Both the position numbers and the translations under genes were made by a program. The notes under the pieces are model-generated. The model made no database searches. It saw nothing but the letters and a program-made list of their open reading frames with translations, and was not told the DNA's origin. From a virus, in IMG/VR virus record IMGVR_UViG_3300028886_000153, positions 1 to 45,385 of that record: 45,385 nucleotides of DNA; one strand, given 5' to 3'. The number at the start of each line of letters is the position of its first letter. The stretch's first letter is position 1. Below are positions 16,336 to 17,201 of this stretch, in pieces.

Positions 16336-16898
16336 CAAGCGATTGGCACTTCGGCCATGATCGCGAGTTCATCTGGAAAGCCCGCGGTTTCAGCTCTGTT
16401 GACGCCATGAATGATAAGATTATCAAGGCGCATAACTTTGTTGTCGATCCCGACGATGATGTGTATGTCCTCGGTGACCTTATCCTGGGCGATTCCGCTA
16501 AGGGTCTTGAGTGCTTGAGAGCGCTCAATGGTAAACTGCACATTGTTCGTGGTAACCACGATACCGACAGCCGATGGGCCGCATATGCGACTTTGCCGAA
16601 TGTCGTAGAGCAAAACAACGTCATTCTGCTCAAGTTCAGAAAGCACAACTTCTATATGAGCCATTATCCCACGCTGACTGGCAATCTGGAGAAGGAAAGT
16701 CTGAAACAGATGACTCTCAACCTGTTCGGCCATACTCACCAGAAGAGCAACTTCTATATGGATATGCCATATCTTTATCACGTTGGTGTAGATTCGCATG
16801 ACTGTTTTCCCGTGAAGCTGGAGAATATCATTGGCGAAATGTATGCCAAGGTGGACGAATGTAAGGAGTTCCTCGATGAATCGAGCGAAGAAGAGTAG
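16317..16898 (+). CDS. calcineurin-like metallophosphoesterase (putative 2',3'-phosphatase partner of the kinase); ends at TAG, or extends to about 17114 if TAG is read through
   Basis: DWHFGHD, GDLILGD, GNHD, GHTHQ motifs; GGAAAGGAGATATCCGTATG RBS; ambiguity described in findings. Confidence 0.6.
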   Translation: MAATWVTSDWHFGHDREFIWKARGFSSVDAMNDKIIKAHNFVVDPDDDVYVLGDLILGDSAKGLECLRALNGKLHIVRGNHDTDSRWAAYATLPNVVEQNNVILLKFRKHNFYMSHYPTLTGNLEKESLKQMTLNLFGHTHQKSNFYMDMPYLYHVGVDSHDCFPVKLENIIGEMYAKVDECKEFLDESSEEE

Positions 16899-17175
16899 AA
16901 AAAACCTGTCGTGGCAAGCAGCCCGGCAGAAGATAACAGATAGGCTATTCTTTCCGTCAAACAAGCAATGCAATTATATAAATTATAGAATTGCGACAAA
17001 TGCGTTTGGCAAGGAAACGAATGTCCTGGGCCAACCCCATGGAATCCCCCAAGTTGCCCACACGGACTCAATTTTAAGCGTGATCCACCAGATGGTGGAT
17101 ATTATGGATAAATTAGGTTGTAATGATCTTGAAGCATTAGTACATGAATATGTAAATACTTTAATCAATAATTAA
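16876..17175 (+). CDS. hypothetical protein (TAG-free frame overlapping the MPE tail)
   Basis: frame free of TAG/TAA/TGA with helical C-terminus; ends TAA 17173-17175 just before next RBS. Confidence 0.35.
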   Translation: MNRAKKSRKNLSWQAARQKITDRLFFPSNKQCNYINYRIATNAFGKETNVLGQPHGIPQVAHTDSILSVIHQMVDIMDKLGCNDLEALVHEYVNTLINN

Positions 17176-17201
17176 AATTAAATATAAAAGGAGAAAAGAA
17201 G

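Follow-up and report, generated by a model that had tools for sequence, protein, structure and literature searches.

Phages in which the stop codon TAG is read as Gln (code 15) have been described among crAss-like and Lak phages, in other gut clades and in the Phass-1 group (10.1101/2021.08.26.457843; PMC9523058; PMC10607447). Much of what accompanies the altered code is also known already: the recoding of stops by phages as such, early genes that stay compatible with the standard code, homing endonucleases and lysis genes that carry stops in frame, and isoforms arising where a gene ends with TAG (10.1101/2021.08.26.457843; 10.1101/2022.06.29.495998; PMC9523058; PMC10607447). In Phass-1, three tRNA-Sup(CTA) genes with predicted Gln charging are present and TAG is read as Gln (PMC10607447). 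According to the Mgcod study, TAG-free genes yield one and the same protein whether read in code 11 or in code 15, and TAG-ended genes yield a slightly longer isoform under code 15 (10.1101/2022.06.29.495998).

The window, by which we mean the whole stretch of 45,385 nucleotides analysed here, is a piece of a large phage (SPbeta/Phass-1-like, 150-200 kb) and a new lineage of this known phenomenon; dual-coded early genes, too, are nothing new. Like the described code-15 phages, it has in-frame TAGs in conserved genes and few signs of TAG as a terminator, and these codons fit Gln best, though by a narrow margin over Lys; many of its replication genes lack TAG, an endolysin-like gene and the homing endonucleases are rich in it, and its clade mixes recoded and standard-code members. 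Unlike them, it shows no suppressor tRNA or release factor in the 45 kb or in the flanks examined, and the lineage has no nucleotide-level match to deposited phages (two 8-kb stretches of the window were searched). By protein, Phass-1 and the SPbeta-like Bacillus phages are the nearest described relatives, including a distant YorF-family link (25% identity). The one particular feature of the window, as predicted from its reading frames, is a TAG-ended gene whose code-15 isoform takes in the next gene. Among the window genes, only that of the second metallophosphoesterase is dual-coded in the Mgcod sense (a product almost unchanged between the two codes, with less than 30 nt from one stop to the other), and with its TAG followed by TAA it is exactly the TAG-end case of that study:

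10375-10380, plus strand: TAG-TAA at the end of the second metallophosphoesterase gene (9505-10380), from the codon listing

The gene of interest, a member of the YonG_N family, is not dual-coded in that sense, its stops under the two codes lying 792 nt apart (36186 vs 36978); unlike the Mgcod isoforms, its code-15 product swallows the following gene and thereby gains a whole 260-aa enzyme.

Nearly all genes of the window lie on the plus strand. They encode gyrase/topoisomerase subunits, an NAD-dependent ligase, a DnaB-like helicase, RNase H, an RNA ligase, PhoH/PIN, endolysin-like, SPFH/flotillin and major-vault-protein-like proteins as well as several homing-endonuclease-like proteins; a uracil-DNA glycosylase was recognised by eye, without a family scan. 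Neither the window nor the gyrB insert gave a match to an Rfam family. In IMG/VR, related loci number more than 100, many of them on contigs of 150-200 kb, and those used for comparison carry L-numbers (L001, L060, L223 and so on). For the search of loci by alignment, an alignment of 9 sequences was usable; one of 32 sequences held no sufficiently conserved stretch.

To judge from these comparisons, the window phage reads TAG as an amino acid, since in-frame TAGs occur in conserved genes and align with sense residues, and the genes end with TAA or TGA. With these two as sole stops, many otherwise broken genes become continuous, and 75 in-frame TAGs fall within about 57 plus-strand genes (13,434 codons). 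Gene ends in the window comprise 37 TAA, 19 TGA and a single candidate TAG, at 36186. As first stop, TAG closes 5 of 335 genes in recoded relatives vs 8 of 159 in standard-code relatives, and of the five, two are TAG-TAA pairs and two are imperfect endonuclease matches. The use of TAG is uneven: more than half of the 75 reside in homing-endonuclease-like genes, which carry 22 per 1000 codons vs 2.8 in the remaining genes, and 14 of the 25 larger non-endonuclease genes lack TAG altogether, where 9.9 would be expected (P = 0.02). This fits the published picture of early genes compatible with the standard code and recoded late, lysis and selfish genes (10.1101/2021.08.26.457843; 10.1101/2022.06.29.495998). 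TAGs near gene ends are not clearly enriched, as 4 were observed within the final 7 codons of genes vs about 2 expected (a rough estimate from TAG positions).

Which amino acid is inserted was approached through 48 alignment columns, each with at least 5 homologues, in which TAG mostly faces Q and K. Over these columns, Gln reaches a log-likelihood of -125.0, ahead of Lys (-127.7) and Glu (-144.6). Strongly conserved columns show Q at 39232, 41049, 1628 and 9354, and K at 35440, 39436, 28158 and 21417. A search for tRNA genes in the window, in 31 related loci and in 6 further loci including 8 kb upstream, a set that samples the genome only in part, returned none. As no tRNA gene was found in the window or the 37 scanned loci, we infer Gln from the alignment and by analogy, and most likely TAG is decoded as Gln by a suppressor tRNA whose gene lies in another part of the genome. 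For Lys, the fit to the TAG columns is nearly as good.

A sequence-only reading of the window had singled out four TAGs (16896, 24869, 36186 and 39232) as candidates for regulated junctions, at which a stop would do double duty as a sense codon. It was right in taking TAG as sense in this genome. Our comparisons support a different account, which we consider probable: in a phage that reads TAG as sense, three of the four would be sense codons, and 36186 would be an inherited stop that happens to lie in frame with the next gene. Put to the orthologue comparison proposed together with that claim, the junctions at 39232, 24869 and 16896 did not stand, and 36186 held up as a gene end, the one site at which the idea of early termination with later fusion may still apply. 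The stop itself is conserved at none of them: TAG occurs in 0 of 76 orthologues at 39232, is replaced by T/G at 16896 and mostly by TGA/TAA at 36186, and recurs at 24869 in the nearest relative only. An in-frame domain does follow the TAG at 16896 (a Cys-rich tail), at 36186 (a thymidylate-synthase-like protein) and at 39232 (a conserved tail). Two of the sites, 39232 and 24869, belong to the following parts.

38371-39303, plus strand: YorF-family gene of 310 codons with a predicted sense TAG at 39232-39234 (phrog_2367; PF27337 YorF on the 310-aa public gene call)
39289-39315, plus strand: perfect 12-bp hairpin whose loop is the TAA stop 39301-39303 (-26.4 kcal/mol, z = -3.4)
24818-25012, plus strand: conserved gene of 64 codons with a predicted internal sense TAG at 24869-24871 (orthologue conservation on both sides of TAG)
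25009-25452, plus strand: RNase H gene (rnhA) without TAG (Pfam RNase_H 6e-30)

In the YorF-family gene, which is matched by SPBc2 yorF in tblastn and by PF27337 (a precomputed Pfam match on the 310-aa product of an identical contig), the TAG stands 23 codons upstream of TAA 39301-39303. As had been claimed, the gene gains its C-terminal tail only through this TAG, and the final TAA does sit in a hairpin loop. The tail is conserved (..DEYKASK.. followed by a stretch rich in Ala and Pro, with ..GGFNF or a similar sequence at the end), and all 80 orthologues read on past 39232 into it. Among the 76 that can be aligned at this column, the codon is CAG in 31, CAA in 26 and another sense codon in 19. 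Since CAG stands here in the two nearest relatives (92% identity), one C-to-T transition accounts for the TAG. Plain CAG/CAA inside a continuous domain speaks against a regulated junction here, and TAG 39232 is, by its orthologues, an ordinary sense (Gln) codon of a continuous conserved gene. Some YorF orthologues do end with TAG (L046, L050 and L052) and were considered as candidates for dual use; these loci appear to be standard-code and were set aside.

The small gene ahead of rnhA had been described correctly as to its 64 codons and strong SD (GGAGG, 4 nt upstream of the ATG); its start lies at 24818 rather than 24817 and its TAG at 24869 rather than 24868. The claim that it is in frame with rnhA is contradicted by the frames, which are offset by 2: its TGA (25010-25012) overlaps the rnhA ATG at 25009 (ATGA), and the two genes are predicted to be translationally coupled. 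TAG recurs at the 24869 column in the nearest relative (L127/128), other loci having T (L131), R (L132) and V or E (L130). With conservation on both sides of the TAG and a frame different from that of rnhA, the site fails as a regulated junction, and TAG 24869 is, on this comparison, an internal sense codon of a small conserved gene.

At 36186, the situation is different, as the comparison of gene families places this TAG, alone among the four, at a real gene end. The genes concerned are:

34921-35913, plus strand: GIY-YIG nuclease-domain gene with 7 in-frame TAGs, start coordinate uncertain (PHROG homing-endonuclease matches, C-terminal domain)
35910-36188, plus strand: YonG_N-family gene of 92 codons, with TAG 36186-36188 directly after the family-typical C-terminus (PF27269 YonG_N; phrog_3314)
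36198-36980, plus strand: thymidylate-synthase-superfamily gene of 260 codons without TAG (Pfam Thymidylat_synt 5e-17)

The first of them carries the Pfam GIY-YIG domain in the public gene call, and its TGA overlaps the ATG of the YonG_N gene; a terminator-like hairpin at 34885-34915 argues against its first ATG. The YonG_N assignment comes from a precomputed Pfam match on an identical 92-aa product (identical public contig) and from phrog_3314 at 4e-9. A word-index protein search with the 92-aa ORF found no match, and an exhaustive HMMER search found 234 homologue clusters. Many of these homologues are 90-105 aa long, with a conserved core ..YTWxDSxxLNxx, and many end 0-9 residues from the ..FLNELR of the window. 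The third gene matches both thymidylate synthase and CMP hydroxymethylase in the PDB. Its ATG (36198) lies 9 nt downstream of TAG 36186, in the same frame and without a convincing SD; the distance and the lack of an SD are as the sequence-only reading had stated. In 9 of 9 other loci (L001, L113-L120), this gene is free-standing and keeps its own Met; its upstream neighbours vary among them, and their stop usually adjoins or overlaps its ATG. As the C-terminus of one family falls at 36186 and the downstream gene stands alone elsewhere, the TAG marks the stop position of a gene. The YonG_N genes of related loci end as follows:

L001, L219 and L225: recoded, stop TGA
L006, L218, L221, L223 and L224: recoded, stop TAA
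L226: stop TAA
The window and L060/L115: recoded, TAG with the following gene in the same frame
L212: recoded, TAG within the tail, the frame then staying open into a P-loop protein
L211: recoded, frame open throughout, without any stop, into the P-loop protein that L212 also has
L222: code unclear, one-ORF fusion of YonG_N to a complete NAD-dependent DNA ligase
L227/228: standard-code, stop TAG

TGA or TAA in relatives, and TAG in one that uses the standard code, thus stand where the gene ends, which bears out the view of 36186 as a true gene end. The codon is best read as an inherited stop that was left unreplaced in the lineage of the window.

TAG 36186 could also simply be a Gln codon, the 356-aa YonG_N-ThyA-like fusion being the intended product and YonG_N a modular N-terminal domain on enzymes of replication and nucleotide metabolism. 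We regard this as a serious possibility, albeit a rather unlikely one. The module does occur in fused form: besides the ligase fusion of L222 and the stop-free run of L211 into its P-loop protein, in L215-217, as in many database homologues, the protein is longer and has two domains (Pfam recognised no known C-terminal domain in the long YonG_N homologues). The TAG of L212 lies inside a K/E-rich tail, at a column that is sense in L060, and at each of the three TAG junctions of recoded genomes (window, L060/L115, L212), the following gene continues the frame. The missing SD before ATG 36198 points the same way. Decoding of 36186 as Gln would give the 356-aa product with the junction-spanning peptide ..FLNELRQQKNMNEF... 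Against an intended fusion, most YonG_N genes of recoded relatives are free-standing, about 95-115 aa long and closed by TAA or TGA (the eight loci of the first two lines above), and the thymidylate-synthase-like gene is unfused, with its own Met, in the nine other loci. Nor does an in-frame neighbour imply a fusion, since the same layout exists with a true TAA: at an orthologous junction, the standard-code L227/228 read ..EKRRK-TAG-N-M(helicase) and the recoded L223 reads ..ERRK-TAA-N-M(helicase). A search for strain-level variants of the 36186 junction returned only copies of 100% identity.

The first metallophosphoesterase gene invites a reading of its own, and its parts are listed here:

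16317-17111, plus strand: metallophosphoesterase, long form, 264 codons (Pfam Metallophos_2 and Metallophos; phrog_547)
16896-16988, plus strand: linker with three in-frame TAGs at 16896, 16941 and 16986 (codon listing, orthologue alignment)
16992-17108, plus strand: Cys-rich C-terminal mini-domain CDKCV..C..C..FKRDPPDGGYYG, conserved in orthologues
16876-17175, plus strand: TAG-free ORF of 99 codons in the +1 frame, probably not a gene (frame comparison among relatives)

TAG 16896-16898 does end the standard-code frame that starts with ATG 16317, as had been noted; three more TAGs had been counted behind it, of which we find two (16941 and 16986) before TAA 17109-17111. The long form consists of the catalytic domain, a linker of 31 codons bearing the TAGs and the Cys-rich tail, the linker frame running into CDKCVWQGNECPGPTPWNPPSCPHGLNFKRDPPDGGYYG and then TAA. 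In 8 loci from five lineages (L081/82, L084-86, L090, L106 and L107), the three parts form a single open frame of 237-264 aa. Neither a stand-alone Cys-rich ORF was found in these 8 loci, where the tail is always fused to the phosphoesterase, nor a Met in any relative from which the tail could start, nor a Cys-rich ORF beside short-form phosphoesterases, which would have suggested a recent fusion by read-through. The linker is poorly conserved, orthologues having T/G at 16896, P/I at 16941 and T/Q/R/L at 16986 (T, P and T/Q in the nearest relatives). What had been proposed as a boundary is real nearby, as many relatives are short forms ending ..FLDE with TGA or TAA 5 codons before 16896; the junction itself is uninterrupted in orthologues. 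TAG 16896, together with 16941 and 16986, is, as the alignment indicates, a sense codon in the variable linker of a two-domain protein.

The overlapping ORF at 16876-17175 had been taken for a clean TAG-free alternative. Open it is, over 99 codons, but nothing indicates that it codes for a protein: outside the window, only the nearest relative (L081/82) keeps it open, many stops falling into it in L084-90, L106 and L107, its SD-like AAGGAG corresponds to the conserved K-E codons of ..ECKEFLDE, and neither Pfam nor PHROG gave a match. Between the window and L081, the tail has 10, 13 and 22 mismatches at codon positions 1, 2 and 3; this implies coding in the phosphoesterase frame, as the +1 ORF would give the opposite pattern. 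The ORF is thus probably not a gene. Stop-free ORFs in alternative frames, such as this one, are common in this G+C-richer stretch.

The linker TAGs might act as a gate, giving the catalytic domain alone early in infection (193 aa, comparable to the short form found in nature) and, at high levels of the suppressor, the long form with its Cys-rich tail, which we hold to be unlikely. For such a gate, it can be said that short and long forms are both stable architectures among relatives, that L081 and L106 also bear a TAG early in the linker, and that three TAGs in 31 codons exceed the background of 2.8 per 1000 (P about 9e-5 for one 31-codon stretch chosen beforehand, whereas this one was picked post hoc). 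However, the positions of the TAGs are not conserved, the long forms of L084-86 and L107 do without a linker TAG, and a single TAG would suffice.

Annotation of the window must treat TAG as sense; under the standard code, the Cys-rich tail of the phosphoesterase, the conserved C-terminus of the YorF-family protein and the whole 64-codon gene would be lost, and one spurious ORF would be called.

Taking 36186 as an inherited stop in a recoded phage, two outcomes can be envisaged. If release by host RF1 prevails, as it might while the suppressor tRNA is still scarce, the products would be two separate proteins, the thymidylate-synthase-like gene then being translated by reinitiation 9 nt downstream of the TAG; where the suppressor wins, the 356-aa YonG_N-ThyA-like fusion would result. 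Decoding of the TAG as Gln, as the 7 TAGs of the overlapping GIY-YIG gene require, would let ribosomes run on into the fusion. The public gene call for an identical contig, made with a recoded table, does list a 356-aa protein with YonG_N and Thymidylat_synt. If the GIY-YIG and YonG_N genes are co-translated, termination at 36186 would be inefficient. A true switch, with separate proteins early and a YonG_N-enzyme fusion after the code change, may be suggested as a tentative and quite improbable extension; if true, it would fit a wider habit of the YonG_N module, which in related phages either forms fusions (with a DNA ligase, with a P-loop protein) or has only a TAG between itself and an in-frame neighbour. 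Such a leaky stop before an in-frame functional domain would give two products per message, like the programmed read-through of viruses (Qbeta A1 protein, retroviral gag-pol). Such viral sites are conserved and depend on the normal tRNAs of the host, whereas the TAG positions of the window are unconserved and read-through would need a genome-wide suppressor.

Efficient termination at 36186 through local context, with no fusion at all, would agree with a TAG placed exactly at the family C-terminus, in a stop-beside-ATG layout that relatives build with TAA or TGA. Yet the bases before and after the TAG give no signal that sets 36186 apart from the sense TAGs (75 window TAGs; 3' base A in 21, T in 16, C in 18 and G in 20), and a short way upstream on this part of the transcript, 7 TAGs have to be decoded. 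A bacterial mechanism granting immunity to a suppressor tRNA at a specific position is not known, which also counts against this reading, and we judge it very unlikely.

That each of the four TAGs serves for regulated read-through or dual use at a natural gene end is highly improbable: the published switch model with early genes in the standard code (10.1101/2021.08.26.457843; 10.1101/2022.06.29.495998), the clustered phosphoesterase linker TAGs with their counterparts in L081 and L106, and a TAG-truncated phosphoesterase that would be a complete catalytic domain speak for it, but no orthologue has TAG at 39232, a stop at 24869 would leave a 17-residue peptide of a gene conserved over 64 codons and out of frame with rnhA, the linker columns hold sense residues in the nearest relatives, the Cys-rich tail can be made only through TAG 16986, and neutral drift from CAG, AAG or GAG to TAG predicts TAGs in poorly constrained linkers.

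With the inherited stop as the preferred reading, 36186 offers a concrete place for measuring how a recoded phage handles a leftover amber stop, and TAG in L227, TAA in L223 and the TAG kept in the window phage and L060 make up a small natural experiment on the repair of stops after a code change. A TAG-TAA pair, as in the 9505-10380 gene, also closes the orthologue of the 40487 gene in two recoded relatives (L054 and L059).

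The in-frame TAG codons of the window are unevenly distributed: 42 of the 74 counted fall in seven genes resembling homing endonucleases, of HNH and GIY-YIG types, in which TAG density amounts to 22 per 1000 codons, compared with 2.8 in the remaining genes. The G+C content of these seven genes is 26-36%, and their coordinates in the window are:

1097-1810, homing-endonuclease-like gene
8619-9521, homing-endonuclease-like gene
25566-26342, homing-endonuclease-like gene
28062-28775, homing-endonuclease-like gene (GIY-YIG), within the split GyrB-like gene
34921-35913, homing-endonuclease-like gene (long GIY-YIG ORF)
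37439-38356, homing-endonuclease-like gene
43762-44478, homing-endonuclease-like gene (GIY-YIG), inside a 1,032-bp block (43567-44598)

The block around the last of these is precisely missing from two strains of 96-97% identity (L232 and L233), which shows that this mobile endonuclease gene has recently been gained or lost. The GyrB-like gene (26224-29329) is interrupted within its Toprim motif (..IIIMSDADV/DGAHIKNLF.., the slash marking the interruption) by an insert of about 1.07 kb, which carries the GIY-YIG ORF and resembles an intron that houses a homing endonuclease; a search of the insert against Rfam returned no group I or group II intron match. As for the long GIY-YIG gene, its first ATG is spanned by a strong terminator-like hairpin (34885-34915; 13 bp, then TTTTT), and its true start therefore probably lies further downstream.

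In the closer relatives of the window, the YonG_N module is invariably preceded by a GIY-YIG gene, the two overlapping at ATGA. This module (L211, L212, L222, L215-217; 35910-36188 in the window) is seen free-standing or in fusions, the fusion partners being a P-loop protein, a complete NAD-dependent ligase and a C-terminal domain of unknown kind. The neighbouring thymidylate-synthase-like protein (36198-36980, motif DPACWQH) is divergent, its Pfam match being limited to the central third, and its scores for thymidylate synthases are roughly the same as for CMP 5-hydroxymethylase; it could be a pyrimidine hydroxymethylase serving DNA modification. Some relatives (L006, L212) have a ThyX-like gene at this position.

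Two TAG-free genes reach a G+C content of 48-50%, far above that of their neighbours (~30-35%), and are unusual cargo for a phage:

1815-4229, 804-aa protein with major-vault-protein shoulder and repeat domains
17202-18665, 487-aa SPFH/flotillin protein

Tandem TAG-TAA closes a gene in the window (10375-10380) and the orthologue of gene 40487 in L054 and L059, the pattern expected if an old amber stop acquired a backup once the code had changed. One TAG of the related locus L090 (~4700) falls within the Cys-rich phosphoesterase tail, opposite a Trp (TGG) that the near-identical L084-86 conserve (CVYSAxFCG in L090, x being TAG; CVYSAWFCG in L084-86). Either Trp was replaced by Gln here, or this hints that Gln is not the only reading of TAG. 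Over the phosphoesterase linker and tail, a +1-frame ORF is open in the window (16876-17175) and in its nearest relative, L081 (~4560-4840), extending beyond the phosphoesterase stop in both, and is closed in every more distant relative.
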